64,000 nt of DNA, taken from Ophelia neglecta. Its lineage: Eukaryota. Position 1 is the first letter of the stretch, and each line of letters opens with the position of its first letter. Made by a program: the position numbers and the translations under genes. The stretch covers positions 50,034,001 to 50,098,000 of the forward strand of contig OZ260667.1 of assembly GCA_965285935.1 (NCBI GenBank), read 5' to 3'. The notes beneath the pieces were generated by a model, which worked only from the letters and a program-made list of their open reading frames with translations, was not told where the DNA came from and ran no database searches. Of this stretch, positions 13,279-48,048 are shown one piece after another.

Positions 13279-16200
13279 ATGGCAGACGGGGGTGAAAAGA
13301 TCGCGGATTCCTTTGATTTTGATTCATGGGTTAAAAAATATGAATTCACAGAGAAAACAGTTACCATTCTTCGAAAGAAAGAGTTAACATCCTTACAAGT
13401 TTTACGTGTACTTACGTTAGCAGACGTAAAAGAACTACGTTTGACAATGGGACAACGAAAAACTTTGCAAATGGCTCTTGAAAAGCTAAACAATGATAAT
13501 TGGCCAATATCTAACGTAATGAAACCTGCAGCTAGTGAAACCTGTTGCAAACAGCACCCTGATGCTGGCTTGCAGCATTGTCAACTAGAATCCAGGAGAA
13601 GGAACTTGAAGCAAGCCCAGCACGGCGAAATAGGTTATTAAATTTTTTATTAATTCTTTCAATTTAGTTTAATGTAATCGGCGAAAGCCAATACTATGGC
13701 GAATGCGAAAGTGACATCTTAGTATTGACTGATATGAACATAAACTTACATATACCATTAGCCATTCATACTTAATACAAATTGGCATGACTGGGCTGGT
13801 TCTGTTTAGGGAAGAGTTGTAATTTTGTAATATGAGTGGCTTAATACTATAGTGGTCTAAGTGACATTCAATCCAAAATGGAGTTAGCCATTGCTTTACG
13901 GAGGTAGTAGTATTAACTGTCATTGCTGGAAATTGCTAGCTAGCATCTCAATAGGAAAAGCTCCATCTGGCGAGTAAAACATAGGCGACTTTACAATTGT
14001 TTAAAACGCTTAGTGTAAGAGTAGCCGAAGTGATATTGTACTGTAATGGTCTAAGAGAATGCCAATTGATCGTGACGATACAAAGCAATTTCTTACACCA
14101 CTCCTATTCTAGAGCAATATTCCAGCTCCTAATGTCAAGAAAAATCATTCAAAAGATGCAGACATGGATGTTTAAATTAACATTATTAACATCTTTAAAA
14201 TTGAAATGGTTTTAGTGCAATAATAGACTAATTGCGTTGAGTGCAATAGTGGACTAATTGACAGTTCCTTAGCATAATCACCTTTACAGTAGCGAGATAT
14301 TTTGGCGTCATATAATATAACAAAATAATATTGCGTATATTGCTATATTAAATCCCTCATTGAAGACGATTGATATATTAATCCGATTTTCTTTATATAT
14401 TTTTTTCGTATATTTATATCATATCAAAGACATTTAGAATGATTATACATGTCTATGCTTCAGTATATTATGCTAGTTTTTCTAATTGGTCATTATGAAT
14501 AATTGAATTAATTATATTTATCATTCTTAAAATTGATCAGTCATTTCAACTTCTTTTTATTATGTTATCATTATTTTAAGTAAAGTATAACACTCAAACG
14601 AAAATTTTACAATGTAGTAAAAATTGCATTGACATTGCCATTGAACCTATTTTTATTTTTACTTTGACTATCAGCTGATTTAAGATATGCCCTTGACCCT
14701 TATTTGACCTTAAACTTGACACGAATAAAGTCCATTGTTTTCTTTTAAGATGATCAATTCCTATTATATGTAGAACGCGCCAAGCCCAGGTTGATTTTTT
14801 TTTTCATTTTTGTGATTGGCTAGAGTAATAAATTGTCTTATTCGTAACAGTGACATAAGTGACCATTCTAAATCAGTAGTGGTCTAAGTGACATATTTGT
14901 TGTCATAACAACGAGATATCACTTAACATATTTTTGTTCAGAAAGCCATTTCAAATTATTAGCAAATAGACAAAACCATGTTTCCATGCGGATTTATAAT
15001 AATAAACTCAGAACTTTGCACCTCTGCTGTTAAGAACAATGAAAATGTCACTCAGACCGTTATTGTTCTAAGCCACTCGTATATTTTTTTTATTATATTA
15101 TGATATTATAATCAGTTGCTCAGTCATTACATACTGCAGGAAATATGTATATAATTTGAGATAACTTTCAATACAAGTAACGTTTCATTTTACTTGCTTA
15201 GTGTGTTGTGTGTGCAGGGGAGGGGGGGGGGGGGGATTTCGTTTATTGGATTTTTATTGACACCAAGATTCAGCTAAAATAGCTGAGAAAGAGACCTTTC
15301 ACATGTTCTAATCTGTTCATCCCTACACAGAGAAAGTTTTGTGACTTTTGGGATTTGATTCAAAATCGAAAATCTAAATTTTAGTGTGATTAATAATCAT
15401 TGGAAATATATGTAATGTTTTTGCACATGTTATTATTGTAATAACAAGTTAAAAGTTTATCTGAACTATTTTCTACCTTCCTAGTATTATCTTCATGAAT
15501 TTCTGCTTTCATACCTTTGTAGAAAGAAATCTAACACTCCTTTCAATAATTCATAAAGATCTTAATTAATAATCGATTAAAACCTTGTAAACATAACTGT
15601 AACAAACGGTATAACGTTTTTCTGTCAAAACTATAATGCTTGTATCAGTTGAAACACAACTATCATTAAAATAGCGCTCCAAATATGAATGTGTATGAAA
15701 GGCATATGAAAATGCCTTATAATAAAGGATGTCTTTCTACAACGGTAAGAAAGCAGAAATTCATGAATTTAATACTGAAAAAGGTAGAAAATTATTAATC
15801 TTTAAAGAAATTTTCCGAATAAAATATGATTATAATGTATCATTACTAATCAATGAAAAGTATTTTGCTAAAAGTCATTTATTAATCTTGCACTCTTCCA
15901 ACAAACTAACTAATCGCGTTAATCGATATAAATAGTCATAAATAGAGAAAGGCAATGCCTCGGCAGTAATCATGCTTGTACACACATGGAATGGCTAATC
16001 ATCGGTACACATTAAATATAAAAAAGAACTAGCCCTCTGCTATTCGGACCCCGTAAAACTCCTTACGAAAGCAACCTCTTGCATGCACCGTGTGAATGGA
16101 AACATTAAAATACCATGTTTAATAAAATCGCATGAAATGGATTGAAAAAAATGTTACAATTGCACGCAAAAGAAGATTATTAACTTATTTCAGGAATAGA

Positions 16201-19200
16201 TGTATACTTGCATAAAAGCCATAAGATATGCTAAGATATGCTTTATCGAGTACTTTTGAACCAGACATTAAATGGTTAATCTTCATGCAGACACAATTAG
16301 CTTATGGTTCAACCATCAGCACGTCTGCTGTGTACTTGATCACGACAATTAAAATGGAGATATGTGTAACACAGGCAACTATCGAATAAGGTAAACAAAT
16401 CAAAAAGAATAGTGTATTTTATGGTAGCTTGTAAAAATGACGTGTTGTCAATGTTTTATTCTCGACTCATAATATCGTATATTCCAGATACAACACAAGT
16501 AGAAGAGGACAACGACAAGGATTCCCTTCCAGACATTCGTGAAGGTAAACTTTTTAGGGTAAACTTTCAATGTCAGTATAAAGCAACCCCCCCCCCCTCA
16601 GTCAAGTGAGGTTTAGCATTAATTTGAAGAGATAGAAGGTGTTGCCAGTTCTGTCCAGTTAATAAAGATCCCTTATCTATCTTCTTAGATCCTTTAAGCA
16701 GTGAATGCATACATCAATACCTAATTCAATTATCTTGTGCGACCGTCTATTCATATTCAATATAATGAAATATTCATATTCAACAGAATTGACATATAAT
16801 GTCTTAGTTATATTTGCTTCAGTGCATATGATATATTATAAATATGAATTCTGGTTTATTTGGTGAGTTCAGTTCGTACCTGGGTACGAGGATTGATAAT
16901 TCTATTTTTCAACACATTTTATGTATTTAATATAATAACTAAAAAAATAATTTGCAAAAAAATAATGTTTGTACTCGCACTTTAAAATTATTGAAGCGTG
17001 ACTCTAACTCAAAATAAATCATACATGAAAACCGTGGCAGTTCCCTGATAAATAGGCAAGAAGACTGTCATACACATTTTAAAGCTTTCCTTATTTTGAT
17101 AAAACCCTAGTTTTTTACAATCCATAGTTTGAGCTTTCATTTTTATTTAGAGACAGTGTATTAAATAGTTTTGTAATAATTAACATGTCATTGCAAGCAA
17201 CCATCTGTACTACACTCTCTTAAATGTGGCCCAAATGTGATCCAAAGGAGCACACAAGAAAGTCAGATATCCTGTTTCCTGGAAGCTGTGATATAAATTT
17301 AAAAATATGTGAACATCTTGAAAACTGTTTCACACATTACAATTTCTGAACTTCGTGATTCTCCTTCAAGCAAAAATGCTCCGACAACAATTATCTTGTC
17401 ATGTTTTACACAAATTGCATTTATATATATTTTATATACAAGAATATTTCTTTGTACCCTGTCTGCCGCAGTTGTTATCTGATCTGGACACGTTGCTCAT
17501 ATAAATTTAACCATAATGCTATTCAATTTCGCTAGGGGGATACAGCAATACATGCTAGGGAAAAAAATTCTTTGCATAAGGTATGTAAACTGCGATGACT
17601 TAACAGTTTGTATTTTCCCTACTGTTGTAAGGTTTCTAGACAGCCATAGTTTGGCTGCTGCACGACACTTTTCTAGTTTTTTAATTCAAAATTCAAAAGT
17701 GGTTAGAACATAATTGGAAATGTGATACTTATCAGTCAAATATATAATAATGGTCATGTCAATTATCGTGGGAATGTTTATTATGTTTATTAGGAAGTGG
17801 ATTGAGCACGGTATGGTATTCATATAAGATTTATTGTCAAATGGTGTGCCTTATTATTATACCATTACCCCTTATCAAATAAGTCACATCCTAGAGGTGT
17901 GTCAAGGCAGTTGTATGTATGTGCACTTGGCCTGTAGGTGCGAAACAGAATACGTATGGCAAAAAGACATGAAATATCACTCTATACTATGAAATCTTCT
18001 TATGAGTTACTGTAGCATTTTGTCGGCTGTGGTGGAACACACCTGTCAAACATTGTCAGAAATTTGTAAAGTGAAGAACGAAATATTAAAGCAGTAAATG
18101 GCGAATATACTCTAAGGCTTGTAAAACATAGTGTGTTTAATTGACTAACCTTTGAAAGAGGGAAGTAACTGATGTCTAAATGGTTTACCCAGGTATTCGA
18201 AGAAGGGCTACGCAATAAAATAACTAAAATACTTTATATCTTTGCATACTTGCAAGTATGAAGGCGACAAACCACAATAATACACATGTTAGCATCAAAC
18301 ATATGTTCGAATCAGACGGCAATTGACATTTTACATTGTTTATTATCACATACATAATATGAGTAAGATGATATGCCAATAGCTATTCACATCATTTATA
18401 ATTCCATGAGTCCGAGGTTGTTCATTGTTATGGGGTTCCCTATTTAAAAGATTGTTGATAATTTCCTATTGCAAAGATAAGTTCATATTTTAGCTTTATT
18501 GTCATTCAACAACTTATATCCTTACTTGAGAGAATTTTGTCACGATTGCACATTAACTCTTTCCAGTAAAAGAGGAAAAGAAAATGTAATTGACAGCATC
18601 GAACAATTCGTGCGAATTAACCATCTTCGTACATTGTCTTCTTTTCGCCTACAGGGAACTCAAGAGGATTCATTCAGAACAGTGGAATTGAATCGAGCTT
18701 CGATCAGATCACATGTCAAGCAAATATCAATCGTTCAAACGTCAAACAGTTGAGAAGCCTGATAAAACAGGACTCTGAAACTATCACGAACTCTTTTCGC
18801 CATGATGGGAAATTGGCAGAAGTAAGGAGCGTAACCAGAGACACTGGGCAAAATACTGACAACACCAACAGTATGGAAGTCGAATATTCTACCAGCATTG
18901 TAAAGAAATCTTCTGCATTGAAACCTACGTTCCGCAATCCTATTGTACTTGAAAGCAAAGAACAAGCTTTCAATGTTGAAGATATTCTAAGAATATTAGA
19001 TATCGAAAAGTATCATCCGAGCAAAATCAGTCTACAGCAAATCATGTCTATTTTAGTCGAACCAATCAAAAGCTACGGTCCAATACAAGTTTGTCCCTTA
19101 GCCTATTTAAGCCACTTACTAATGTTAGATTTTAGAACGAGGGATTTTTTATTACCACAACAAACTGGCGAGCAAACGAACATTTCTAACCAAATTCAAA

Positions 19201-22200
19201 GTATTTTTAACACGAATAATTTAAGTGTGGGTCGGTTCCATCCGCAAGATTTGTTTCTTCTTTTTTTCCAATGTTGTGATCTACCCCTGCGGCAGGTGCT
19301 AATGGCAAAATGTTTTTTGTGTCGATTAGCAATTCCGTTTATTTCCCCTGTGAATGATAAACTAGAATGCGCAATTTGGTCCTTGCGCAATATAGTCATT
19401 AATTATAAAACTGAGAAAAATAAAACTATCGAAAATAGTGTGCTAACCACGGAGCTGGATATCATAGGATTTTGTAGGGTACACGACATCCCAAATCTCT
19501 CCAAGTCCAAACTTCTGAATGAACTACTCAGCGAAAGCGCCCACCCTACATTTTACCATCGTGACTGTCTTGGAGGAAAGACCCAACGTCTAGTCTCCAA
19601 TGGGATAATAGAAGCATCCTGGTACCTACCCTCGGGAATATATAGCGATGTATTCAAAAGGTGCACTATGTTTTTGAACCTTCGTGGGGATTGCTTAGAG
19701 CATGAAAGGCAGGTCAGCATTATAAACAAAATTGCATCTATCACAGTATTATTTGTGAATGTCGAGGAATTGGCTGAACTTAAGATATGTAACGCGATAA
19801 AAGGCTTCATGCGAAATACGCTTACTATTTTGGTGATTAGCTATCAGGATAAAATGGAGATGAACAATCAGTTTGCTATAGATTTAAGACAAGAAAATGA
19901 ACGGCCGCTCAGTATTATATATACATTTACTGATGGCATGAAAAAAGATGCTTCCCAAATAAGAAAAGAAGTCCAGTCGTCGATTGACAACTATCTCACA
20001 CACAATGTGAACAGAAATACACTCGAAGCGTGTATAAAAGGTTTTCGTGAAGAGCATTGTATCATCGACGAAGATAACACTTTCTGCGAAGAGGGAAGGC
20101 AATGTGCCGATAAACTGTTTCGTTACATATGCAAAACGCCAACGAACATAGAAAGTGATATCCTTCCAATGCAAGAAGATCCCCGAAATAGATCGAAAAA
20201 GCCACAAAAAGCTGTAAAGGAGGAACGGAAGTGTACAGCTAGGGAAGACACGGACATATTGCAAATCATAATGGTTAATGCTATAGGTGACCAACTAGAA
20301 AGTTGCAAAACATCACACGATCGTCTTGATACATTCACCCAGATTATAGGAAATTTATCCACCACACACTTGTTGCCGTTCTCTCTCTGTTGGATAAAAT
20401 TATATTTTGATCGGCATTCACGTGACAACTTGCCATCATTGCGTCGTGCGTTTTACGACAATTGGAGAGAATTCCAGGAAGCTAAAAGAACAAATGATGT
20501 CCTTAATCTAAACAACAAAAGGGAGACAATGCATTTGGCTGAAAAATCTATTTTCGACGCCTCTTTTGGCCTAGAGCATCTTATCAGAAATTTGGGACAA
20601 ACGTACGAAGCAGGCTTTGAGAAAAAATCACAAGACATTGTGAGAAATAGGCTTGATGATCTTTCCGTGACAGTTGCACACATGTTGATCGGCGGACAAC
20701 CGTTTGAATTGATGGACGGGGACGCTGGAAACATTCCAATTAAATGGGTAAAGGCAATATTTACCAGTCTGGAGAATATACTGGGACAAAGCAGGGTCTT
20801 TATTGTAACCGTTCTCGGAATACAGAGCTCGGGGAAATCCACTTTGTTAAATACAATGTTCGGCGTACAGTTTTCCGTAAGTGCAGGTAGATGCACGCGA
20901 GGCATTTATATGCAAATGTTAAGAGTAGACAAAAAAAATTCGGACCTGCAGTTTGATTATGTTCTCGTCCTTGACACAGAAGGATTGAGAGCTCCAGAAT
21001 ATGAACCTCAGAATTACTACTATGATAATAAAATGGCGACTCTAGCTATTGGCCTCGGTGATGTAACCATGGTTAACATTAAAGGAGAAAATTATGCAGA
21101 ATTGAAAGATGTGTTCCAATCGGCAGTTCATGCATTTCTTCGACTGAAACATGTCACAGAAATTAATACAAGTCGCCGAAGATGGATATTTATTCACCAG
21201 AATGTACCTGCTATTAATGCAGAGGCCAAATTGCGGCATGGTTGTCAAAAGCTACTAGAGTGTCTCGACGACATGGCCCCGGACGCAGCATTACTAGAAG
21301 ACAGCCCCTGTAGCATCAGACGATTTTCTGATATAATAGATTTTGATTGTTTTTCTGATGTATGGTTCCTTCCAGGTCTTTGGAATGGTGATCCACCGAT
21401 GGCCCACCCCAACATTGGCTATATTGAAAAAGTTAAACTCCTCAAAAATGAAATAATCCAAGTTTCGAAAAGACGTAAATCATTTCTTCGTTTATGTGAT
21501 TTTTTCCAAACCATTGAAGGTCTTTGGGAAGGTATACAGTGTGATGACATTTTTAATTACCAGAATTTCAGAGTTCACAAAGCATACAATAATTCTGACA
21601 ACATGGTCATAAACATACAGCGGAATCTGGAACAAGATGTGAACCCGTTCATGAAGACACGTACCGAAACCCTTACGAGCTCCCGTGGAAGTCACGAAGA
21701 AGCCAGACAGTGTGGAATAAATTTGAATGCCGAACTACGAAATATCATTGACACACAGAGCAGAAAAAGAACAAAGTTACTGGCGGCATATTTTGACAGT
21801 AGTCCTTATGCAGACTACATTGCCCAATATCATGGTCAAAAAATACAAACTCTCAAATTATACACATTGGACTTGCTGGCTGATAAGAAATGTGCACTGA
21901 AGGTTTGTCAGTATGCCTTAACATTTTGTAATTTGCTAAAATGGAAAGAGTGCCAACAAAATCGTTCAACACAAAATGAAGCCCCTGTAGAATTCAGAGT
22001 TCGTATATGGGAGGGGATCATTGATCAGTTGATGTCTTCTTTTCCAGAACATGTAAAAATCGCATTAAACCAGCTTGATCAATGCCGAATACATTCAAGG
22101 TCCTATACCGGTAACCTGCAGTTTGATAATGTTCTCGTCCTTGACACAGAAGGATTGAGAGCTCCAGAATATGAACCTCAGAACTACAACCATGATAATA

Positions 22201-23963
22201 AAATGGCGACTCTAGCTATTGGCCTTGGTGATGTAACCATGGTTAACATTAAAGGAGAAAATTATGCAGAATTGAAAGATGTCTTCCAATCGGCAGTTCA
22301 TGCATTTCCTCGACTGAAACATGTCACAGAAATTAATATAAGTCGCCGAAGATGGATATTTGTTCACCAGAATGTACCTGCTATTAATGCAGAGGCCAAA
22401 TTGCGGCATGGTTGTCAAAAGCTACTAGCGTGTCTCGACGACATGGCCCCGGACGCAACAATACTAGAAGACAGCCCCTGCAGCATCAGACGATTTTCTG
22501 ATATAATAGATTTTGATTGTTCTTCCGATGTATGGTTCCTTCCAGGACTTTGGAATGGTGATCCACCGATGGCCCACCCCAACATTGGCTATATTGAAAA
22601 TGATAAACTCCTCAAAAATGAAATAATCCAAGTTTCAAAAAGACGTAAATCATTTCTTCGTTTATGTGATTTTTTCCAAACCATTGAAGGTCTTTGGGAA
22701 GGTATACAGTCTGATAACATTTTTGATTACCAGAATTTCAGAGTTCACAAAGCATACAATAATTCTGACAACATGGTCATAAACATACAGCGGAATCTGG
22801 AACAAGATGTGAACCCGTTCATGAAGACACGTACCGAAACCCTTATGAGCTCCTGTGGAAGTCACGAAGAAGCCAGACAGTGTGGAATAAATTTGAATGC
22901 CGAACTACGAAATATCATTGACACACAGAGCAGAAAAAGAACAAAGTTACTGGCGGCATATTTTGACAGTAGTCCTTATGCAGACTATATTGCCCAATAT
23001 CATGGTCAAAAAATACAAGCTCTCAAATTATACACATTGGACTGGCTGGCTTATAAGAAATTTGCACTGAAGGTTTGTCAGTATGCCTTAACATTTTGTA
23101 ATTGGCTAAAATGGAAAGAGTGCCAACAAAATCTTTCAACACAAAATGAGGCCCCTGTAGAATTCAGAGTTCGTATATGGGAGGGGATCAGTGATCAATT
23201 GATGTCTTCTTTTCTCGTATTAAACCAGCTTGATCAATGCCGAATACATTCAAGGTCCTATACCGGTAAGCTGGAAGTTAGCATAGAAATATATGTTATC
23301 AGCAAAGAGGAGGGCCATTTCACAGTGACCACAGCCCAAAAGCAGAAAAAGAAACTGGCGAAAGAAAAATTAGAAAAATTTAGTACATGCATTCTCTCAA
23401 AGCATTTCAATCAAAACTTGAGAAACGCCGACATTTATTTGCAAGATTTACAAATGACCGACAATTTCCTCACACCCAATATAACAGATGACCATATAAT
23501 GGAGCTAATAGCAAAGGCCACGAAACACCAGACTCCGTTATGCAGAAGCGAAGCATCAAACTATGAAATAAAAATCTTCCCCCCCTGGAAAATTAAAATT
23601 GCTCTGAAGGTTTGTCCATACAAAAGAAACCTTGGGCAAGAATGCGCTCAACTGGAAAATATTTACAAAAGTTTGACAACCGAAACAGTAAAATGGGAAG
23701 AGAAGATCGTATATGTGCCAATATTGGAAAAATTATGGGGTTGTGGGACTGTATGTCATTTCTGCTTAGAACCATGTCTTTGTAGCGAATGTCAGCACAA
23801 CGATAGAATGCCTCAAAAGTGTATACAGCAAAGACCTGGAGGAATCGTCGGGCGCTTTTCAAAAGACAACGACAAGTTGGTTATTACAGCGTGTAATAAA
23901 TGTGTTCTAACGGAAAATTCAGAATGCACTGAGAAATCCCCAAATGATCCCCAGCTGATCTAA
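13279..23963 (+). CDS. GVIN1: VLIG-A: SAM-domain very large inducible GTPase (GVIN1/URGCP family), ~1906 aa; exons 13279-13633, 16488-16544, 18655-23963; rearranged, possibly decaying
   Basis: SAM-like exon (FDSWVKKYEF..LTLADVKELRLTMGQRKTL). Phase-1 junctions are all in frame, although the exon-1 donor GTTATT is weak. Motifs: G1 GIQSSGKS (20817), G2 GRCTRG, G3 DTEGL (20973), FIHQNV, PFELMDGD, C-terminal GCxxxCxFCxxPC. Symbol is family-level only. Confidence 0.85.
15468..15792. mobile_element. Foldback/MITE-like element with ~63-bp inverted arms
   Basis: 15468-15530 (ATTTTCTACC..TTCATGAATTTCTGCTTTC..TTGTAGAAAGA) is the near reverse complement of 15729-15792. Confidence 0.65.
20944..23268 (+). 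repeat. In-frame 1170-bp intragenic tandem duplication in VLIG-A
   Basis: ACCTGCAGTTTGAT starts at 20944 and 22114. The copies are nearly identical; the second has a 15-bp deletion. Confidence 0.97.
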
Positions 23964-24165
23964 TATTTCACCGTTTTAAAGAGTACAAGAAACACCAACC
24001 CGATTGGGACCTACTACCTGCCATAAAAAAAGGAATCTAAATACTGGCTCTGGTATATGGCTAAGTATCAAAACCAAATAGCGGAAAAAAACTCAAAAAG
24101 CCCGCCGAAATTCCCGCTGCATGGAAAGAAATTACTAAAGAAGAAGCTTTAAAAAGCTTATTGTG
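23964..24165 (+). pseudogene. Frameshifted C-terminal remnant of VLIG-A
   Basis: Across three frames it reads FHRFKEYKKHQPDW / ESKYWLWYMAKYQ / KPAEIPAAWKEITKEEALKSL, matching the VLIG-B C-terminus. Confidence 0.9.
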
Positions 24166-28048: not shown

Positions 28049-28519
28049 ACACATGTATTGCATGACATGCATGTATGTATGACATACATGTATGTATGAC
28101 ATTCATGTATGTATAACATTCATGTATGTATGACATTCATGTATGTATGACATACATGTATGTTTGACATACATGTATGTTTGACATACATTTATGTATG
28201 TCATAAATGTATGTTTGACATACATGTATGTTTGACATACATGTATATATGACATTCATGTATGTATGACATACATGTATGTTTTACATACATGTATGTT
28301 TGACATACATTTATGTATGTCATACATGTATGTTTGACATACATGTATGTTTGACATACATGTATATATGACATTCATGTATGTATGACATGCATGTATG
28401 TTTGACATACATGTATGTTTGACATACATTTATGTATGTCATACATGTATGTATGACATACATGTATGATTGACATACATGTATATATGACATTCATGTA
28501 TGTATGACATTCATGTATG
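28049..28519. repeat. 17-bp minisatellite, ~27 copies
   Basis: Unit GACATACATGTATGT(A/T)T, containing the 14-bp palindrome ACATACATGTATGT. Confidence 0.95.
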
Positions 28520-31383
28520 GCCCATATGCTGCCCCTTTACTATTGTTAACTCGATTCATAAAGCACGAAATACCTATTTTCTTATGTATTACATCTTTTG
28601 GAGATCGAGCAACCTGGAGCTTGGATAAGTGAAAATGAACCGAAAAATATATGCAAAATTTGGTATCTAGAAAGGATCCTTAGGTGCTAAAACGCATAAA
28701 AAAACAATATCCTACACAATGTTAATTTTCAAAAAAATTCACGCCCCGGGGCTGGGGCAATATCCCCCAGTGGAAGGGTAGAAGAAAGTCAGACTATGCT
28801 GAGATAACCACTCAGGAATTAGGAATCGTGAACTATACACCAAATACATACTGTATTTTATTATTGGAATAATGAACCATAAACTCGGTGCCAACTTCAC
28901 ACTCCAGACCATTGTTCGAATAATGAACCATGAACTATGAACTTTGGTCCAACTTCACGCTGCTAGACATTTCAACTATACATAAAAACAAATTGGGAGT
29001 CGTAACATGAGCAACCCAGCTACCCGGCTAGGTCTTCCACCTATATAGAGCCTCAGCGTTACGCACAAGTAGTACATAGTACGCACTTATAGACATAACG
29101 TTTAGAATAAATACAGCGACTGGCGCTCTATAAATTATTAAGCATGTTAAATTAAGGGTAGCAGTTATTTTGATGGAGACAAAGTAAATTAAACTTCCAT
29201 AAGTTCATAAGGGGGAACTGACTGATGTAATCCCATCAAAAATTATGTATGCATAGGCAGTATGCATTAATTGGCAGACATGCAATTTTTTTTAATCCCA
29301 GCCAAATACGCTGAACTGCAGATACCGATTGCTATGCGGAAATTCATACCCATTTTGCAAAAAAATGTACGCTGTGACAATTAAGTCCTATGTGTATGTG
29401 TAAGTAATTGGGGTAATAAATTTAAAAAAAAATTGACTGTTGGCCATTGACTGTTGGCCTTTTTTGGGTTGAATCTGTATGAGATCATACTTCTAGTCAG
29501 GACTGATCTTTCATAGTGCGCATATAAAGGGGAATCCATTTATCGGGGGTCCCCAATGATCTGGTCTGATGCCACTTTCAGCTGGCTGGCAAAATAACAT
29601 CATAAAAACAGTTCAGCGTATGAACTTCTTGGCTGGTTGCCATCAGGTCATCCCCTTGAGACCACTAAATGGGCCTGTATGCGGCCGACACCCTTGTACT
29701 GACCTAGTGCAACTAACATTATATGTATTGCATGTGCTGCTTGGTTATGTCAGCTCTTACATCTGCCAGCTGGCTGCAAAGAAGAACAGCTAAGAATATT
29801 TAAGTCGTTTGGGACCCCTCATTCAATTGTGATCAGCAATTACATTTTTTCCACGTACTGCAAACTAGTGCCAAGGCAGTTTCTGGCCTACCTAGCGGTT
29901 CGTCCTTTTCCGACAGTAGATTACAACTTACATGACATTGTGTAGTTTCAGCATCACAGAGATGCTGCTTCATCAGTGGTTATCTCTTTATTTTTATAAG
30001 CGGCCCAAGAACGAATGAGAGGGCGGCAGATATGCATTCTATTTCTAAGATACTGACAAATGAGTAGCATCCATCCATAATCATAATACACTGGGCTGCG
30101 CCTTGTGCACTTATGACTATGGCCAAGAAAGCATAATCTTATCATGTCATTGCTTGTAATTTCAATATTTAGAAAACCCAACAAGACAACATCAAGAATA
30201 CCACTTTAATTAAACAAATACTTTTAATCCTTAACTATATCGTTACTGAGTCAAATGAGCTTCAATATGCCTAATAGCGAGGTCAACAATCATATTTACG
30301 TTAAAAAAAAAGACGAAAGTCATATCCAAATATGCTGATATGCACATCTGAACTAGGACATATATTGAGTTGGCGGTACAGGCAATTTTCGGCAGATAGG
30401 CTTCCTATTAGCCAAATATTAACCTTAACCAATATTTATCCGGTTGAAAGTTACCATCTCATATGTTTACGAGGGGAGGGGGGGGGGGGGTGGTGATAGG
30501 CAACAATAGCAGGATTAAACTCTTTATGTCTACCCTACACATGCGTACTACGTATCTTTCAAAAATAATATCGTCGCATAAGCCCTTGACCCCATTACTT
30601 CAGGCTAACTTGAATTATTTATTATGGTGTGCTTCTTATCGTCATATGCAATCGCGCTTTATAACAGACTGCAGGTAATTTTGATATAATGTATGGGGGC
30701 CCATTAAGTGTTGCACGACCTTAATAGGCAGCACTTGAATGTGTTGAAGAACGTTTGCTTTTAACTCATCACCACTTGGCTTCGTGGCGGTTTCAAAATA
30801 AAAATAAAAGCATATAATTTGAAATGTATGTCATTATTACCAAACTAAAATCATGGGCTTACTTCAGCATTCTGTTACATTGAACTCATTGCGTAGAGCT
30901 TCAACAATAGATCAGTCGAATTGGTCGTGTTGCGGTAGGTATCAAAGGTTGCTATGTACATTCTTAAGCAATTATCCTTTGGCATGTCAGGTTTGCTACA
31001 CGGTACACAGATTGTACAAGAAGCACGGATTTTTTCATTCACCTAAGACTCTTACGTTATCAATTTACTCTTACAATTTTGAAGTTATGTTGTGTATCTT
31101 GAGGTAAACCATTTGGGTTTGCTCTTTTTTGTTCTGTTTTGGGGAGGGAATGGGGTGGTGGTGGGGTGGGGGGGGGGGGGGGCGGGTGCCCGTATAAAAA
31201 AAACGTACCAATGTGCAATTACAAACCAATGCCGGGTAACAAAGCTTTTGTTAAATATTCCATGTTTCGAAGGAATATACCTAACCTTCCACCCCTCGGA
31301 AAAACTGAACGAGGGTTTGAACTATTCTGTAGTCAATATGTAAAGGGTTGGCGTTGGTTTTTGTTCAATTATACGCTGCAAAC

Positions 31384-31642
31384 ATGGCCCACAGGACAGA
31401 AGACATGTCCGATTGGTTTGATTTTGATTCTTGGGCTGTTGAATATAAACTCACAAAGAAAACAATTTGCCGTCTTCGAGAAGAGGATTTAAATACGGTT
31501 AATGTTTTACGTGAACTGGAGCCAGAAGACATAAAAGAACTAAATCTGAACTTAGGAGAACGCAAGCTTTTGTTGCTCGCGGTTGATAGCTTAAGAAATG
31601 GCACTAAGGATAACATCGAAGACACCCAGAGAGATTTGACAG
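31384..31642 (+). CDS. SAM-domain first exon of VLIG-B
   Basis: FDFDSWAVEYKLTKKTICRLREEDLNTVNVLRELEPEDIKELNLNLGERKLL; strong donor AG|GTAATT; paralogous to exon 13279-13633. Confidence 0.85.
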
Positions 31643-34600
31643 GTAATTAACGGCAGCATTCATATACATGTATTTACTTGCATGCAGCATACATACATGA
31701 AAGCCCTTAGGAAATGTATCGTAGTTTTGTTTTAAATTTTAGGTGCACATTTTGTTGCTTAAAGTGGACAAGTGATTTGATTACGTAACATGCGTGTTTT
31801 TCTGTAGCAAATATTAAGAAAATCCTATGTCCCCATCGGAACTATTTTCTGACATTTTAACATGTGTAAATGTAATTTTCTTCAACGGTATTCCTTCCTA
31901 TTGTCGCACATTTTAACATTTGGAAACATGAAATTCACTTTTAATTAATAATATAGCAACACGCGTTAAATGTGCCGACGATGACTGGCTGATGACTAGC
32001 TGTTCAGATCGGAGACTCAAATAAACTGCTCGTGATCTTCGACCCTCGTCGAAAGCACCTCGTGCAAAAAATGTAGGACTGGGTCCAATTAGTTGCCACA
32101 CTTAGAACCCTTTGAGTATATTAACAAGGCATGTGCAATCACAAGGACGGATTTGCGTGTTGTGTGATTATTGATTACTTATATAAATATCCCCCCCAAA
32201 CCCCCCCCCCCCCCCCACACACACACACACACACCCGCACACACACTCAACTTAGGGCAAATCACGCATTTGGTATGTTTCGTAATTAGTGATAGTGTTA
32301 ACAAAAATATTCAATTTCGACTGAAATTGTCATATATGAGCTGTTTATAAAGCGATTTTGACAGTATTTGGAAGGAATCTGGACTGTTCCTGATATGACG
32401 AAGCTCCGTATCCCACGGATAAACATTTAATTGGTTCTATTTCTACTGCTTTGAATCCAATGTAATAGCTAGAGAAACGGGCAAGCAGTCACTAGCCAAT
32501 GTCCAAGATATCCCCTTAATTATAATCAAACAATGTGCAAATGACCGACGTTTGTTTTCACCAACAGTCCTGCCGGCCGCTTGTTCTTGGCGTGGACGTG
32601 CTTCGGACGGGCAATGCTATATACACGTCCATATATACGCTACGGGCGATATGCTTTATACCGCTCACAGCGGTTCCTCCCACACGGGCCGTACAGATAT
32701 ATTTAAAAAAAAGTGCTGGCCACCTATATTGTTGTGTATAATGTCCGTTTAATGGCCGGTTGAACATACACATGCTTTCAAGTCAAGTAGTATTATACAC
32801 TTATATATTGCAGCCTCTGAAGAAGTGTCTTTTGATGCAATGCCCCGCCCCGTACCCTGGAATGGCTGCCACGCAGGAATTGAAATGATCAACACGTGCG
32901 CTGTTGATAATATGTTATATTTTTTCCACGTCTTACAACTTCAAAGAGATGACATGAGAACAGACTTTGCCAAAAGTGAAGAACAGGCCCTTAGGCTACT
33001 TTATGAAGTACACACCTGCTTTAAAGATAGTAGATTTTCCGAAGGCAAATATCTTTGGCTAAAACAATTTTTTTCAGTTGACTCTAATTTGAAAGAATGG
33101 GATGCATTTGGGCATGAAAGCAAGTATTCATTCTCTAAACTGCAGACAATCTTAAAATCATCATTCAACAGCACGTGTTCAGAAACAGGCTCTTGCAGTC
33201 AACCAGAGAAAATATTACATTCAACAATAATCGAAAGCAGGTATGTAAAATTTTATTATCTGTTTTCCAAATAAGGGCAGAGTATCTTGGTCTTGTGTAA
33301 TTTCATTATTTTCGATAGTTTATTTATGCGTGTTAATGTTTTTTTTTATAAAGAGAACTTATAAACTATAGCTGTAATTGTGATAAAAAAAATTGCCAAT
33401 TTAACAAATACCAGTTGAAAATTTATTTACTTTTCAACATCAGGGCGCAAATCATAAATCCTCAAAAGCCCCCACTACTAGTGGTACTATTGACTTTTGA
33501 TTTTTAAAATACTAGAAGCCAGGAACATGGGTCTAAAGATTTTGCAAATGGAGTCGAAACGTGGGTGATGAACAATCCCCAAACCAAATGCGGCTATAAA
33601 GAAAAAAATTCCGAACGACAGTATGTACTTGAACATATTAAACAAATATAATACTGATGCGCACATGTAAGAGAGAATGAGTTTTTAACCCCGCCTTCAA
33701 TTCTTGCTATAGCATTGAAAAACAGTATGTTGTTTAATTCCTTTTTTCAGGTGCGTTGGTGTTAGGAAAGAAACGCCCAGGAAGTTTAATTCAGAAGAAC
33801 CACCTTTCCTTCTAATTGACCTAGCTTCCTGTGACTGGAAAATATTACCTCTGTCCATGAATGTTCTAAACACAGAGTAAATATATTACCTTCATATTGC
33901 TTATAGTTTTAAATTTTCATTTGTTACATTTCAGCGAAAAGAACGGTTTTCTAAAACATATTATTATTCCTCTCATTTTCTGAAGTTTAGCAATTTCAAA
34001 ATGGCCATGCCTCTGACGAGTTTCATGGTGAATTGACTTCCCAGGAATCAATTTTTTTTTTAATCTACCCGTTTCATTGGGTCTACCTGGAGAAAAACAA
34101 CCGCACCTTTTTACCATTTCCTTCCACGCAGAAATAAAGATGGGTCGATTTTCGCTGAAATGCAATGTCCATGTAAATAAGCCAAAAATAACTCTATCAA
34201 ATCTTTTGGTTGAGTCTTTTGACACTGGATCGGAAGATGACTCACAAAAAGCAAAATATTGTTATTTTAAGCTGTATGAATCAAATTTAAAAGAAATTAA
34301 AGAATTAATTTTAAAGAAATGTTTGCAAAGCTATTTATGCTTTTGTTTGGACCAGAGGAATTTATCCAAACTTTTAAAGCAAATTTCCTTGCCACTTGTA
34401 TGCTGTAACCAGCTCAGTGGGTTTTTTTAATTATATATGGGATCTTTGAAAATGGTCTAGTAATTCTAAATTTCTTCTCTCTCCATAAATTTCTCACCAA
34501 AAATTGAAAAGTTTGATTCCCAAGGCTCCTAAAGATCTAAAATTTAGAGCGTCGGGGAAGATTTTACGAGTCGCAATATATTATGCTTATCTCTTTGAAT

Positions 34601-37600
34601 TATTCATATCTTAATGCCCAAATAAAATATAAGCAACCTGAAGTATGGTGAAGGAATATATTGCCTTTGTCATGAAATTGGAAATAAGCTTGCATGGAAC
34701 ATTCCTCAAGTTTATTAAGTCTTTTAAATGAGCAAAAGATGTAAAGAAATAGAAAAGAAGATAGTTCGCTTGAAACTGTCATGGACGGTTGAAGATGTGA
34801 GTGAGTTGTTGATAATATCCGTAAACCATGGAACCAGATCATCTAAGCAGCCCTTGAGGAGCCATATCGGCAGTGGATCTGCATCACATGACTTGGGGGA
34901 CAGCATGTTATCAGTTTATGCACCTCGGCTTGTGTGAGTAGTGCAAATTGTGGGAATGAAGTTTGCATTTTTTTGGGGGGACCACATACTGCCATATTCT
35001 TGAACGCTCAGTGAGATTGCCATATACACGAAGTTCATTTACATACTTACTAAATCATAAGTGTTTAGCGTATGTATATATGGCTGCTCATGGTTTCAGT
35101 ACTCATACATTTACATAAATTTAACAGTTATTTAATTGAACTTATTTTGTAATTCAGATACTCCCTCAAGATGATTACATATGGTAATAGTACACACTTC
35201 GTTGCTTCCATGAGGTTTCATGCTCAATGGTGGCTGTATGATGGGTATAAGGAGTACAAAAAAAAGGCTACAGGGTTGCAGAAACAGAAAGAGCCATTAC
35301 CCCCAGATGGATACATCAGAAGTTTCTGCGTATATACTAAACTACCTTCAGGTATGTTAAAGTTTGTAAAGGCCTAAGTTTATCATGAGCAGAGAAATTC
35401 CTACTTGTTTCTTCATGTGAAAGAATTTTTAGAGAAGTTTCCATGTTAACCCTCAAAATAAGGTGTTAATAAGTAATAAGAAATTAATTAATGTCATCCA
35501 TGTTTCGACATTCTGTATGATGATTGAACAAAGTTAATAAGTGATTTTGATCCACACAAAAATATACAGTGATGTGAAAAGACTAAAACAGGGTCAGGGT
35601 TATTGGTTATAGTCAATGTTACTTAAATAATTTCTGAAACGCCCTTCAAAGACTGAAAACGTTGGGGCAGTCTTTATGTACTTCTTAACGTAGTGAAAAC
35701 GCCCACACGAGGAAGAGCTTCTCCAAATAACGTGTCATACTGCACGCAGCGGGTCTTACATTTCACCTCTCCGGTCTATTGGCCTCTTTATTCACCAATA
35801 GACTGACCTTGTCATATTGTCAGGCTAAGACCTTAGTAAAGCATTTGACAAGGTCAGCCACCAACACCTGCTGCTGTTCTTAATGGTGAATTTTCAGAGG
35901 ACATCCGAGTAACCTCGGGTGTTCCACCGGGCTCTGTACTAGCCCTGTTCTATTATTGATTTATATTAATTACCTTTCTGACCACATTAGACACAGCAGG
36001 GTTCGGGTCTTTGCCGACTACGCCATTTTTTACCAAAGCATATAATTTTCTCAAGATATTCTCCTGATACATCAAGACCCCTCAGGCGATGGGGGTCTGA
36101 CTTGCACATGCATTTTAACCCTTCAAAGTATCACCCTGCATGTCTACAGACGGAAGCATTAAGGTCACAGCGACGCTTATTCCCTCCAAAACACTTCCCC
36201 GCTGAAGTAGTGGACAATGCCAAATGCCGAGGGTTTACTGTCCACAACAAACTTAGTTGGAATGACCATGTGAATGAGATAAGTGGCAAGGCGAGCAGGC
36301 ATGTTGAGTAGGAAGCTAAAGCCTGCTCTCCGTAAGATCAAAGAGCAGGCAAAACCGTCTATAATTTAATATAATAAATTAAAACCATTCTACTAAAAAT
36401 ATAAAATGTGTTAGATAATCCGTCGGTATTCACTTATTTCGGTATTCGGTATTCACCTGAATACCGAATAAGAAAGAACATTCTGATGAATAGGTATGAG
36501 CGATTCGGGCAAGCTATTTCATAGTTCTGGCGCTACTCGCACGTAGCTAATTTGCCGGATGTCTCTTACCTCTTACGTGGGACATTGAGAAGAAATTTCT
36601 TCTCGGACCTGAGTGATCGATTAACTATCTGCATCTGAAGAAGGTCGGCATCCTACATTGGCGCGTGTCCATTTAAGGTCTTATAAGTCATGAGCATCAC
36701 TTTGTATGCAACATGATGATGTACGTGCAACTTATGAAGCTGTTAAGATAGCGTTAATTCGAGCATAACGAGGCGTTTATAACAGTAGCAGCAATGCTCT
36801 GCAATATCTGCCAGCGCTCGACAAAAGCCTTCAATATTCCAGATAAGAAAATATCGCCATAAATAGTTATATAGTTATATAAGTTACCATCCTACCCATA
36901 CTAATTATATTAACTATAAAAATCGTTCTCGTTTCCACCCGTAGGTGACTTAAGACGAAGCATGGAGGGTCATGGCATAGATGTAGACTATTGGCAGGCC
37001 ATATTTCATGAACAACTAGAAATTTCAGCTATGAAACAGTTGAGTCATTTGACACAAAAGGAATTTAAAACGCTCGCAAGTTGTAGTCGCTCTGCGTTTG
37101 AACTGATATCTTTAAAGACAATGATCAAAGAAGCGGGGGGCATTATTTTTCATAATAATAGTAATGTTAATATTGAGGGCATATTGAAGGAACTCAATAT
37201 GGAAGAGTTTCATCCTGGAAAAATAAGTTTACCGCAAGTAATGTCAGTCATGACCGAGCCAACGAAAGGTCTAGCTCAATCTACATTTTGCCCATTAGTC
37301 TATTTGCATAATTTAATCATGTTAGGCTACAAAACAAGAGATGCTCATTTGCCAAAGCCACATAGTGAACAATCTGAAACTTCAAAGCAAACAACAGGAA
37401 TTAAAAGTGTTCTTAGCACGTGTAAATCAGGTGTAAGTGACTTCCACCCTCAGGATGTATTTCTGATGGTATTCCAATGCTGTAATCTACACTTGAGGCA
37501 GGTCCTAATGAAAAAATGTTTCTTGTGTCGATTAGCAATACCTTTTATTTCTCCTATGAATGGGAACCTTGAATGCGCAATTTGGTCGTTACGCAGTATA

Positions 37601-40600
37601 GTCGCTTATTACAAAAATGCAGAAAAAATAAATGTACAAAATGTTATTGTGAACGCCAGCCTGCACATCATAGGATTTTGCAGAATTAAAAGCAACAAAA
37701 ATCACTCAAAGTCCAAACTGTTAAATGAGTTGCTCAGCGACAGCGCCCACCCTACATTTTACCATCGTGACTGTCCACAAGGTATGACCAAACGTCTAGT
37801 CTCCAATGGAATGATAGAAGCATCCTGGTACCTACCTTCTGGGACCGATAGCGATTTATTCAAAACATGTACTATGTTTCTTAACCTTCGTGGGGATTGC
37901 TTAGAGCATAAACGGCAAGCTGGCATTATGCGCAAAATCGTAGCGGTCACAGTATTGTTTGTGAATGTAGAAGAATTGGGTGATCAAACCATTTGCCAAA
38001 ATATCAATTATTTTGCAAAGAAAACACAAGTTATTTTGGTAATCGGCTCCCAACTTAAGATGTGTAAACAAAAACTAGAACATATTCTTACTCAGTGCAG
38101 TAACCATTTGGGAGAAGAAAACGTAAGTCGACTCTATTTCATCTACACTTCTACCGTCAACATGGGCAAAGATGCTACCCAGATAAATTCCGAAATTCGT
38201 GCTTCGATTTCTGCGTGCCTCACACGTAATAATGTAAATACACTTGAGGCATGTTTAAATGTCTTTCGAGAAAAATGTTGTGACATCGATGAAGATATCA
38301 AAAGTAGCATAGAAGGGAAAATACATGCAGATGACATGCTTCAAAACTTATCTAAAAACACTTTGTCCAAGAAAAGCCTTATGCTGCCACTGCAAGATCT
38401 CTGGTTGCAATGGAGTAAACTTCAACAAAAACAAAGCCGTGCAGTAGGGAAGGGAACCTTAACTACTGCCATGGAAGAGACGGAAGATTTACGAAACGAA
38501 ATGGGCAAAATTAGAAAGGAGCAAGGACGATTATGCACAATTTCCTCCCCACTGGTGAAAAGATTTATCAAGATACTAACTAACGCATTTCGATCAGATG
38601 CCTTCTCAGAAATGACGCCATTCTTTCTCTGTTGGGTGAAATTGTGCCTTGATGGTCGTTCACGGGAAAACTTACAAGAAATGCAGCGTGCGTATGAAGA
38701 AAAGTTGAGAGATTTACAGAAAGTCAAAAACAAAAGAGACTTTACTGTGACTGGAGAAAAGGAGGCAATGCAGTTGGCAGAAAAACAACTTGTCGGTGCC
38801 TCTTTTGGCCTGGAACATCTTTTTAGGGAATTAGGGCAAATGTACGAAGCGGTTGCCGAGCATAAGACCAACGTTCAAGACATCATGAGAAAACAGCTGA
38901 ATGAAATGCCCATTATTGTTGCCCACATCTTGATAGGCGGGCAACCATTTGAATTGATGGACGGGGACGCCGGGAACATTCCAATTAAATGGATGAAAGC
39001 AATATTTACCAGTCTGGAGCATATATTGGGACAAAGCAAAATCTTTGTTGTGTCCGTCCTTGGAATTCAGAGCTCAGGGAAATCCACTCTGTTAAACACA
39101 ATGTTCGGTTTAGAGTTTTCAGTTAGTGCTGGTAGGTGCACGAGAGGCGTTTATATGCAAATGCTCAAGGTAGGAAAAGAATATTCTGACCTACCGTTTG
39201 ACTATGTTCTGGTCATTGATTCAGAAGGACTAAGAGCCCCTGAATTGGGAAAACAGAAATACGACCACGACAATGAAATTGCAACTCTAGTTATTGGCAT
39301 CAGTGATGTGACCATTATTAACGTCAAAGGAGAAAGTTATGCTGAAATGAAAGATATAATCCAAGTGGCCGTTCATGCTTTCCTTCGAATGAAACTTGTC
39401 TCATTTAGTCATACAAATCGCAGAAGGTGTATATTTGTTCACCAAAATGTACCGGCTACGAATGCAGAGGAGGCCATGCGACACGGCAGTCAAAAATTAC
39501 AGGATGGCCTTGACGAAATGGCTCAGGAAGCGGCGTCACAAGAAAATATTCTTGGGATAAACAGCTTTTCTAATATAATTGAGTTCAATTGCTTGTCAGA
39601 TGTGTGGTTTCTCCCCGATCTCTGGCATGGTAACCCGCCTATGGCTCACGTCAACATCGGGTACAGTGAAAAGGTCAAAAATATAAAACGTCAAGTACTG
39701 TTCCAATTTTCAAAAAGCCAAAAATCTTTTCTTAGTCTAGAAGATATTTACCAAAACATTGAAGAACTTTGGAAAGGTATACTATCAGACGACTTCGTGT
39801 TTAGTTTCCGAAATGTAATAGAGCTGAAGGCCTATAGTCATCTTGAAAGCACAATTATTGACATAACTTGGACACTAGAAGAAGAGCTAGACGACTGGCT
39901 AAATACTAAAGCTGAACCCCTAATGGGTTCTTGTCGAAACAACGAAGACGCAAAGAAATGTGGATTAGACTTGAAATCTGAAATAGACTCATTTATACAA
40001 AACAAGGCCGACTTAAATAAAGAAAAGTTGTCGATTTATTTTCTAAATAGCTCATATGCTGACATAATTGAAAAATGGCACGAGCAGAAGAAGAATGTTC
40101 TGCAATCACATTCTTGCGACATGCTCCTAAAAATGAAAGAAGAACTAATGGAATTGCAAACACGACACGAATTGCGATTACTTACCAATGAGAACCACAT
40201 GATACATAAGGACGACATAATGAGCAAAGCCCTCGACGTGGCTCTGGAATTGAAGGGAACTGCCTTAAGTGAAGATGCTTTGAGAGAAAAATTTGATCAC
40301 GTTTGGCTAAGCTGGCAAGCCTGCACTTCAGAAAATAAAATAAATATTATTTCCCCTGGCAACATTTTAAGACAGATGAGTGGCCTATTGTTTTCCCTGT
40401 TCCCACAACACCATCAAATTGTTAAATATCACCTAAACATCAACCCAATAGGAGTTAAAGCTAATTTTTCTCCCTTAGAAAACAGCATAGGAATAATTGA
40501 TATCAGACAGGAAGACGGCTATCTTAGTATCGAAGTTGCTGACTCCATAGACACCTTTTCGGCACAAAGGGAGGTGCTGGAATCAGGTCATCAAGTCGCG

Positions 40601-42028
40601 ATGAACATTATAAATGAGGCTTTAAAAAACGCCGATATTTTTTTGAAAGATTTATGTAAGACAGATACAAAATTCAGCAAGGTTCATGTCAAGAAACTGA
40701 TATCAATGATTCAGAAATGTCCTACTCAAAACATAGGTGAAGGAGAAAAATATAAAATGACTCTTCTTCCCCGGCTGTTAATCAAAGTATCTGTGCTTGT
40801 TTGTCAGTATGCCTACCCAATGTTATGCGAAATGCAGCAGGCATATGAAGAGAACAATAGTTTTTTTCCCATGATCAAGAGATCAACGTGGAAGTTGTTT
40901 AAAAACACTGTCTTGAGTCAGGAAGAAGAATTAGTTGCAGATCTGATTTGTGACTGTTTGCAAGAGCGAATTCGAACAGCTCTAAATGAACGTATCCATA
41001 GGAAAATATATCGACTTCAATCTAGACATTTCAAGACAAAAGCCCGTTTAATGTACAAAGTTTTGCATTCGTTTGCCATAAAGGATAGCTTTGGCACTTT
41101 TGATGGCTACATCCGTTCACCTAAGGAATCTGTTCTTCTGTGGTTGACAGATTACATCAATAAATATTATTTTACCAGGCAGGACTCGAAGCCTTCAAAG
41201 TATGCTGATCTGGCCATCGCGAATCTAAATGAGATAATGCAAAAGGTGCTAGAGAATATGAGCGAGGCCGTAAAGGAGTGTAGAAGTAATCATGCGGATC
41301 ATGACTCATTTATTGATGTGGGAAAATTAATAGATGCGTTCTGTAATTTGGCAAAATATAACATTTCAATCAGTCGGTCACATTTGCAGCACCTGGCACG
41401 TAGAAATATAGCAGACTTGTCAAGTTTTCTCGGGATCTTTAAAACCAAGCTTCAGGCCGAAAGAACGCTTTTGGCAGAATCTTTTACCAGCGTTACATGC
41501 GATACAATAAAGTGGGGAAAAAAGGCGGTAAACATGGCGGTATTGGAAAAACTGTGGGGCTGTGAGGCCATTTGTCCTTTCTGCAACGAACCCTGTCTTT
41601 ATAGCGATCCCAAACACATAGCGGATGACATGCCCCATACTTGTATTCAACACAGACCTGGTGGAGCCTCTGGTTGGCATTGGAAAAGTGACCAAAAATT
41701 GCTGAATACTGCATGTAATTACAATGTTAAACAAAATGCTAGATTTGTTTGCACTAAAGCAACTTGTATAACAAGTAAAACATGTGCAGCCCAATCGCCT
41801 AATATGCCCGTTTATCATCCATACAGGGAGTACAAAACACACCTCCCGGACTGGTCTATATCGCCAGACGAAGATATGGAATCTTCCAAATATTGGCTCT
41901 GGTTCATGGCTCGCTATCAAATTAAGTTAGCAAAAAAATATCATCTTAAACCAGCTCATATTCCCCCTTCCTGGAAGAACATCACGAAAGATGAAGCTAT
42001 AAAAAGCTTAGAAGGTTTTTATCTGTGA
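31384..42028 (+). CDS. GVIN1: VLIG-B: SAM + USP-like cysteine peptidase + very large inducible GTPase (GVIN1/URGCP family), ~2064 aa; exons 31384-31642, 32814-33240, 33516-33620, 33751-33876, 35158-35351, 36945-42028
   Basis: Five GT-AG introns with compatible phases (1,2,2,2,1), giving 6195 nt with no internal stop. The giant exon has a GVIN1-type N-terminal helical motif (GIDVDYWQAIF..LSHL), G1 GIQSSGKS (39062), GRCTRG, DSEGL (39218), FVHQNV and a C-terminal Cys/His cluster. Symbol is family-level only. Confidence 0.85.
32814..35351 (+). CDS. Four-exon USP-like (papain-fold, clan CA) cysteine peptidase module, 284 codons
   Basis: Cys box NTCAVDN (Cys 32897), PPFLLID, YSLKMITYGNSTHF (His 35195), WWLYDG (Asp 35240), terminal SFCVY, and Cys pairs compatible with a finger zinc site. 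Confidence 0.8.
34760..34906 (-). mobile_element. LINE (L2/CR1-like) ORF2 fragment in an intron
   Basis: KSCDADPLPIWLLKGCLDDLVPWFTDIINNSL..FKR resembles the pre-RT region of LINE ORF2. Confidence 0.7.
35820..36350 (+). mobile_element. Degenerate LINE reverse transcriptase fragment in an intron
   Basis: Frameshifted DLSKAFDKVSH, VTSGVPPGSVL, IYIN, FAD and KLSWNDHV motifs. Confidence 0.8.
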
Positions 42029-43496: not shown

Positions 43497-43604
43497 CCGA
43501 GAGCAGTGTTTACATTGAGCAGGCCAGATCAACACATGTGATACCGCACGCGTTCAACACCTCTCTACTGATCACGGGAAAATAGTAGCTATTAACAGTG
43601 TGTC

Positions 43605-47743: not shown

Positions 47744-48048
47744 TCATGTTTACCGCATACTGCATTAAGGAAATTTTACTCAGAAAAAGTATAAAATCAT
47801 ACGTATTAACATACTCCTAATATATTTAGTTGAAAACATCCTTTTCTCGCTATAAATGTATAAATTGTATGTCCTTGCATATATTAACAGTCAGAATAAA
47901 GGGAATCTTCTTGCTTACTGTTAATGTAAAAACAGAAGTATTAATAAAAAAAACCTTTTCAGGTGATCATGATCATTTAAGATACTTTTAGAAATAATCA
48001 TTTTATTACATTAAGATACATTTCTTTAATGTTTGATACAAAACACAT

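Follow-up and report, generated by a model that had tools for sequence, protein, structure and literature searches.

A probable transposon-derived USP-fold protease joined to a VLIG-type GTPase in Ophelia neglecta

We analyzed a 64,000-nucleotide stretch of the Ophelia neglecta genome (contig OZ260667.1, positions 50,034,001 to 50,098,000 of the forward strand; hereafter the window), which consists of eukaryotic, intron-rich DNA. Within it we identified a block of four exons that encodes a USP-fold protease domain and lies between a SAM-like exon and a large exon for a VLIG-type GTPase. We consider it probable (about 0.64) that these six exons form a single gene, with a main product of 2064 amino acids (aa) that joins SAM-like, protease and VLIG regions, and that the protease derives from a transposon. 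An earlier note on this DNA had read the block as a cassette that could switch among three isoforms. The fusion itself is the finding that emerges here, and the isoform switch is unsupported.

A protease domain spread over four exons

The four protease exons, in genomic order A, C, B and D (Table 1), have lengths of 427+105+126+194 = 852 nt and AG/GT borders throughout. Phases across the block run 1-2-2-2-1, with phase 1 at both outer borders and phase 2 at each of the three inner introns. Joining the block to 31384-31642 and 36945-42028 gives the 2064-aa frame with zero internal stops. These sums and phases confirm the 852-nt, phase-1-to-phase-1 block of the earlier note, as well as two further claims – that direct joining of 31642 to 36945 stays in frame (1780 aa) and that leaving the 35352 donor unused leads to a TAA at 35375-35377.

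To place the exons independently of the window sequence, we used a profile of 13 relatives from which that sequence was left out. Exons A, C, B and D were the top four of the window's 2076 stop-to-stop frames and appeared in profile order (E values of 9e-52, 5.7e-4, 8.5e-8 and 9e-25, with a fifth match at 0.29). The four protease exons thus exceed chance in the window, which is not the case for the in-frame skip and the early stop. Omitting exon C lowered the profile score from 330 to 294 bits. A three-exon A-B-D model (747 nt) is in frame, but we rejected it because it loses a conserved cysteine and scores lower. A 105-nt candidate exon at 34802-34906 was also set aside, having poor splice sites and a frame without a Pfam match. 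An overlapping frame, 34734-34931, opens with the SAM-like residues SWTVEDV and has no Pfam match.

A search with exon A recovered 108 relatives at E≤0.001 among 1.84 billion representatives. The spliced block aligned with the intronless relatives P0010 (45% identity, module residues 5-281) and P0009 (47%, residues 14-280), and relatives reach identities of up to 45-49%. Because these alignments run end to end, the block corresponds to exactly one complete domain; in 12 of the 13 listed relatives the protein terminates at most a few residues away from the exon D end point.

We compared a structure model of P0010 (predicted local distance difference test, pLDDT, of 76.5) with the PDB and obtained 272 chains at E≤0.001, headed by the deubiquitinases USP18, USP46 and USP12. 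Template-modelling (TM) scores against USPs in the rows shown were about 0.41-0.53, at identities of 10-16%. In the ESM Atlas, the relative P0002 scored 0.97 against the C14orf28 cluster (206 of 256 features shared) and 0.94 and 0.91 against UCH clusters. A catalytic triad (Cys115-His319-Asp334) and four zinc-type cysteines (Cys208, 214, 254 and 265) are intact and lie in conserved columns; the catalytic column holds a cysteine in 94 of the 96 relatives that cover it. Judged by the modelled fold, the Atlas features and these residues, the domain is a USP-fold papain-like protease, probably of the C14orf28 type, outside Pfam UCH. It may act as an isopeptidase on ubiquitin or a ubiquitin-like substrate. 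The only Gly-Gly near the module, at aa 435, bears on the idea of self-cleavage.

We next consider the flanking exons. The first has a residue pattern that we take to be SAM-like. Its match to Pfam SAM_1 lies below the cut-off (E 0.12, 13.1 bits versus 23) and its best hit in a PDB sequence search reached an E value of only 0.56; the SAM label is weak. A SAM-SAM complex prediction scored 0.00, from which we draw no verdict. The last exon matches Pfam URGCP_GTPase (E 1.8e-121, 406 bits against a cut-off of 55) and URGCP (E 4.9e-57, 194 bits against 27), retains intact G motifs – G1 GIQSSGKS (39062), GRCTRG (39131) and DSEG (39218) – and is 38-41% identical to named sea urchin, nemertean and mussel proteins.

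A tandem paralog lies upstream on the same strand. Its SAM-like exon is 46% identical to that of the gene over 72 aa and its VLIG exon 49% identical. The paralog would splice its SAM-like exon to VLIG through a 57-nt phase 1-1 exon into the same phase-1 VLIG acceptor, and its introns contain no match below E 1 to either of two protease profiles: the relatives-only profile, and an earlier one built with the module of the window among its rows, which also served for the VLIG-relative scan and the anchor counts below. In the paralog's VLIG exon (18655-24200 region), a portion of the GTPase region is internally duplicated, with a second DTEG at aa 1163. Its stop falls at 23961-23963, and family C-terminal motifs run on in shifted frames right behind. 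From its sequence, this exon appears to be truncated, decaying or misassembled.

Table 1. Features of the protease-bearing gene and its paralog (window coordinates; a slash marks a splice site)
Feature	Position	Strand	Remarks
Coding exon 1, SAM-like, ends in phase 1	31384..31642	+	Donor CAG/GTAATT
Protease exon A, phase 1 to 2, 427 nt	32814..33240	+	48-53% identity to P0010/P0009; catalytic Cys115 (codon 32897-32899) and Asn113 in the Cys box; helical part; first two zinc-type cysteines at 33176 and 33194
Protease exon C, phase 2-2, 105 nt	33516..33620	+	Third zinc-type Cys 33589
Protease exon B, phase 2-2, 126 nt	33751..33876	+	Fourth zinc-type Cys 33752
Protease exon D, phase 2 to 1, 194 nt	35158..35351	+	53-61% identity to P0009/P0019/P0010; His box with His319 (35195), Asp334 (35240), domain end
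Phase-1 donor CAG/GTATGT and read-through stop TAA 35375-35377	35352..35377	+	
VLIG/GVIN1/URGCP-type GTPase, one 5084-nt exon	36945..42028	+	Pfam
Tandem paralog	13279..23963	+	SAM-like exon 13279-13633, 57-nt exon 16488-16544, VLIG exon 18655-23963

Origin of the protease block

To trace where the domain occurs elsewhere, we examined the sequence upstream of it in its relatives. An upstream stretch of 40 aa or more is present in 68 relatives, and in 25 of them it is shared with two 1300-aa open reading frames (ORFs), P0021 and P0024 (both counted in the 25); the same holds for 14 of the best 15 (two being self-matches). ORFs of this type carry the protease at their C-terminal end and a DDKA...DAG...E series of motifs, with a D-E gap of 43 residues in all six checked. 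The nearest named family to their core in the ESM Atlas is the ISAzo13 transposase (0.84), a sub-threshold score that serves as a lead only. Zator is the eukaryotic counterpart of ISAzo13 according to the available text of PMC5718144, and its classification is treated in the accessible parts of PMC7386202 and PMC8533490. Since a literature search linking Zator with DD43E came up empty, we do not use the 43-residue gap as a family mark.

The domain also occurs on other long ORFs. Five more distant carriers all have D..D..CxxH..E motifs, with an invariant W in the alignment; the arrangement given for MULE transposases in the text seen of PMC5225508 is D..D..CxxH..W..E. L003 (positions 401-4600) combines a PHD finger with a MULE-like ORF that has a four-exon protease, in a copy that is broken because one acceptor reads AA. 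At L004 (791-4246) a 1152-aa ORF with a chromo domain ends in the same protease; outside the protease it is unlike the Zator-like and MULE-like carriers, and is possibly a third transposase type. The other genomic context that the earlier note had called for is therefore found on long transposase-like ORFs, though in other genomes. We built a quick tree from the 78 rows in which most of exon A is represented, omitting P0003 as a near-copy. The window domain belongs there to a group of 26 rows, 19 of them Zator-like carriers (Shimodaira-Hasegawa-like approximate likelihood-ratio test, SH-aLRT, of 92). A viral or prokaryotic origin was rejected, as relatives were absent from viral contigs (0 of 66 candidate stretches) and from prokaryotic genomes (0 of 17).

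Intron positions offer a second line of evidence. In 22 of the 81 relatives with an aligned anchor cysteine, the called ORF ends exactly at Cys+15 – the codon split by the A/C intron of the window – while ends at any other distance occur in at most four relatives each. By inspection, the final residue of all 22 has a G-ending codon, fitting a phase-2 GTAA donor. Searching with only exon A biases the hits towards truncated ones, but this bias cannot account for the exact Cys+15 position. The L003 protease has three phase-2 introns, one of them in the same column as B/D. These ORF ends and the L003 introns make the inner introns look inherited. The nearest relatives, by comparison, run upstream into a long ORF with no intron at the 5' border of the window's module. 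Since the domain is reached without an intron in relatives, which also end shortly behind it, the phase-1 sites at the outer borders are likely to be new.

The protease profile found no match in the 120 best-listed of 1132 VLIG relatives (lowest E value 0.16). Taken with the protease-free paralog and the occurrence of the module elsewhere on transposase-like ORFs, this favours gain over loss, and the sequence comparisons indicate that the module was most likely gained from a DNA transposon. The earlier note had proposed gain or loss by exon shuffling; movement of the module as a unit stands, with gain favoured, whereas loss is not favoured. We propose that in the ancestral gene SAM and VLIG were joined across a phase-1 intron, and that this intron received the 3' end of a DNA-transposon gene, one that encoded a DDE transposase ending in a C14orf28-type protease and already had phase-2 introns. 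The transposase part would then have been lost, with new phase-1 splice sites at both domain borders joining the protease in frame.

Several observations weigh against this reading. The structure model is of P0010, a 45%-identical relative, rather than of the window protein, identity to solved USPs is just 10-16%, and Pfam gave no match for the block exons and no UCH match in single exons or whole relatives. The other two L003 introns lie 2 columns from A/C and 9 from C/B. Roughly half of the 120 VLIG relatives are ORFs called on contigs, where exons further upstream would be missed. Around the module, the window shows neither a transposase remnant nor a convincing terminal repeat, and L003 (7.1 kb, with ends perhaps beyond the contig) and L004 yielded no terminal repeats either. 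Pfam, NCBIfam, PDB sequence, plasmid tblastn and Foldseek searches did not confirm the donor ORFs as transposases – the Foldseek test being uninformative, as its model had a predicted TM (pTM) score of 0.33 and lacked the first Asp – so a transposase donor is suggested here by motifs. Support for the tree group is below 95 and comes from a quick tree rather than a careful search. The four listed exonic allele differences, two of which change a residue and two of which do not, are uninformative on selection. Finally, inclusion of the protease exons in the transcript is a prediction from sequence.

Some of these points would also suit a different history, in which the module came by exon shuffling from a C14orf28-type host gene, or is an old module lost in the paralog, and the DDE-motif ORFs are not its donor or not transposases. 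A C14orf28 host family does exist (PMC10318531, in the portion available), no library confirmed a transposase, and the tree support is modest in the sense given above. We nevertheless regard this history as improbable: the nearest relatives continue upstream into a long ORF with no intron at the 5' border, the catalytic-type D, D and E motifs persist with constant spacing, and the domain is absent from all 120 of the best-listed VLIG relatives.

Splice forms

We examined whether the sequence around the block favours a switch among isoforms. The SAM-VLIG intron is phase 1 in the gene and in the paralog alike; because the host intron has this phase, the 1-1 symmetry of the block is forced, and it records insertion rather than regulation. 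Five of the 16 possible exon combinations reach the VLIG end (none, AD, ACD, ABD and ACBD), and frame therefore cannot single out the forms that the earlier note had chosen. In the introns of this gene, 39% of positions are followed by a stop within 8 codons, which places the read-through stop at chance level.

The 35352 donor matches the consensus at 8/9 positions. Sites of this quality occur at 0.375 per kb, and by arithmetic from this density the chance that one lies in the fitting phase and no more than ~30 nt from the domain end is near 0.004. A donor this rare, sitting where the domain ends and sharing its phase with the VLIG acceptor, suggests selection for splicing onward to the GTPase. 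The first AATAAA past the read-through stop is at 36373, ~1 kb on, inside a repeat-rich stretch. At exon B, the acceptor CAG/GTGCGT (33748-33756) doubles as an 8/9 donor-like site, resembling recursive splice sites; its use as a donor would remove exon B in frame.

Three contig runs from one sample cover exons and introns alike, with one contig per listed exonic difference. No contig joint skipping the block is listed among them; contigs show presence only, and we did not use them for isoforms or copy number. Numerous contigs have loose ends at 34640-34900 and 35500-36900, which suggests that these intron stretches hold repeats shared with other loci.

On the three-isoform reading, regulated splicing and 3' end choice would yield SAM-protease-VLIG, SAM-VLIG and SAM-protease products at meaningful levels, co-assembling through the SAM domain. 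All three frames exist, and SAM-VLIG is a natural architecture, as in the paralog. The protease is C-terminal in most complete relatives, and a SAM-protease product ending near 35377 would resemble a first capture step. Moreover, 18/33 young host-transposase fusions co-exist with the parental transcript, although older ones mostly keep the fusion transcript only (bioRxiv 10.1101/2020.05.07.082677, in the text available). Against this stand the forced symmetry, the five in-frame forms, the chance-level stop, the strong donor onward and the distant AATAAA described above, and skipping would require the joint silencing of four exons. Minor isoforms are possible and a skipped form at any detectable level is somewhat unlikely, while a regulated three-way switch is improbable.

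Improbable as well, in our view, is a combined reading, in which an immune GTPase, armoured against ubiquitin-driven degradation by a domesticated transposon deubiquitinase-like tail, still switches among armed, unarmed and SAM-protease forms that co-polymerise via their SAM domains, and in which the protease family rides on at least three transposase types. Were the family indeed carried by at least three unrelated types, human C14orf28 would be a candidate domesticated member. It is also improbable that the four exons form a nested separate gene or transposon remnant within one long intron of a plain SAM-VLIG host: exon A has an early in-frame ATG and some relatives (276-283 aa) appear to stand alone, but these are on short contigs (1.8 kb for P0002, which starts in a transposase linker motif) and may thus be fragments, both outer splice sites are phase 1 and match the host exons, the 8/9 donor sits right behind the domain end though such sites are sparse, and frame and catalytic residues are intact while transposase sequence is entirely gone.

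Known systems, possible role and neighbouring features

The GTPase part of the gene resembles VLIG-1, GVIN1 and URGCP (PF25683, PF25496) in its single large exon, URGCP and GTPase domains and intact G motifs, and differs from them in its SAM-like and USP-fold protease front end. No SAM or peptidase family appears among the domains precomputed for the 120 best-listed of the 1132 VLIG relatives. Exchange of N-terminal modules is itself a family trait: the six relatives that we scanned (P0118, P0120, P0139, P0140, P0141 and P0182) carry SNTX/MACPF, MACPF, DED, Death, Ig or chromo fusions, a variety that suggests that the VLIG family serves as a platform for exchanged effector modules. To our knowledge, VLIG and GVIN GTPases are infection-induced but have no established mechanism. 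Induction of VLIG in frog is described in the available part of PMC4481470.

Dynamin-like immune GTPases assemble on membranes. By analogy, the GTPase encoded here might assemble on foreign or damaged membranes, with the SAM-like domain aiding clustering, and the protease could locally detach ubiquitin or a ubiquitin-like tag, either from the assembled GTPase or from proteins of the membrane that it coats. Certain bacterial E3 ligases destroy GBP GTPases, and we prefer a role in which the protease would shield the GTPase from ubiquitin-driven degradation or edit the ubiquitin signal there. A protective job has been proposed for transposon and herpesvirus VTD enzymes (PMC9741609, as far as its accessible text goes). 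Alternatively, the protease could be an effector activated by clustering and directed at another substrate.

We know of no substrate for C14orf28. This protein (also DRIP1) is described in the accessible text of PMC10318531 as having a papain-like deubiquitinase-type domain of unknown function, placed with a USP-like cluster. The likeness to it was seen in language-model features of the relative P0002 (0.97); C14orf28 also has a second, fingers-like domain according to the same text, whereas the domain here is internal to a GTPase protein. With USP/UBP enzymes (MEROPS C19, Pfam UCH) and USPL1 the window domain shares the fold, the Cys-His-Asp order, an Asn two residues before the Cys and the four zinc-type cysteines, but it is shorter than USP/UBP domains, 10-16% identical to them and without a Pfam UCH match.

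Proteases on transposase tails have precedents. Ginger1 (OTU and Ulp1), Mutator (Ulp1) and Helitron (OTU and VTD) elements carry them and they have been domesticated repeatedly (PMC2836005, PMC9741609), a Trichomonas transposase has a peptidase C19 domain (PMC2836005), and VTDs use an Asp-x-His site (PMC9741609), in each case as stated in the parts of these papers available. Like the Ginger1, Mutator and Helitron tails, the domain described here is a papain-fold protease, putatively of the ubiquitin/SUMO kind, which in its relatives lies at the C-terminus of probable transposases; it is distinguished from those tails by its C14orf28/USP class, its Zator-like carrier and its putative capture into an immune-type GTPase. 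KRABINER and SETMAR likewise arose from intronic transposon exons spliced to upstream host exons, but they capture a transposase, mostly its DNA-binding domain (bioRxiv 10.1101/2020.05.07.082677, from the text seen), whereas here the protease tail alone would be retained, as an internal module spliced on both sides. We found neither a VLIG with such a protease nor a C14orf28-type domain on Zator-like ORFs in the databases and literature searched, a search outside of which lay most subscription journals, Repbase reports and supplements.

A protease-bearing VLIG beside a protease-free paralog offers a natural comparison that may link this family to ubiquitin signalling. If a transposase left nothing but its protease tail, retained as an internal block of exons, this would represent a little-described route of domestication. 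The presence of a C14orf28-type domain on transposase-like ORFs is also a lead to the origin of the human protein.

Other features lie elsewhere in the window. At 43599-48249 a THAP domain (E 6e-12) is followed by broken transposase-like frames on the + strand, and the opposite strand carries a P2RX7_C exon (E 1.2e-6). We presume this arrangement to be Kolobok-type. A fibrinogen C-terminal domain exon (E 1.6e-36) lies on the - strand at 54332-54787. By eye, we observed a short-unit tandem repeat at 28060-28520 and a degenerate purine-rich repeat at ~11000-11750.

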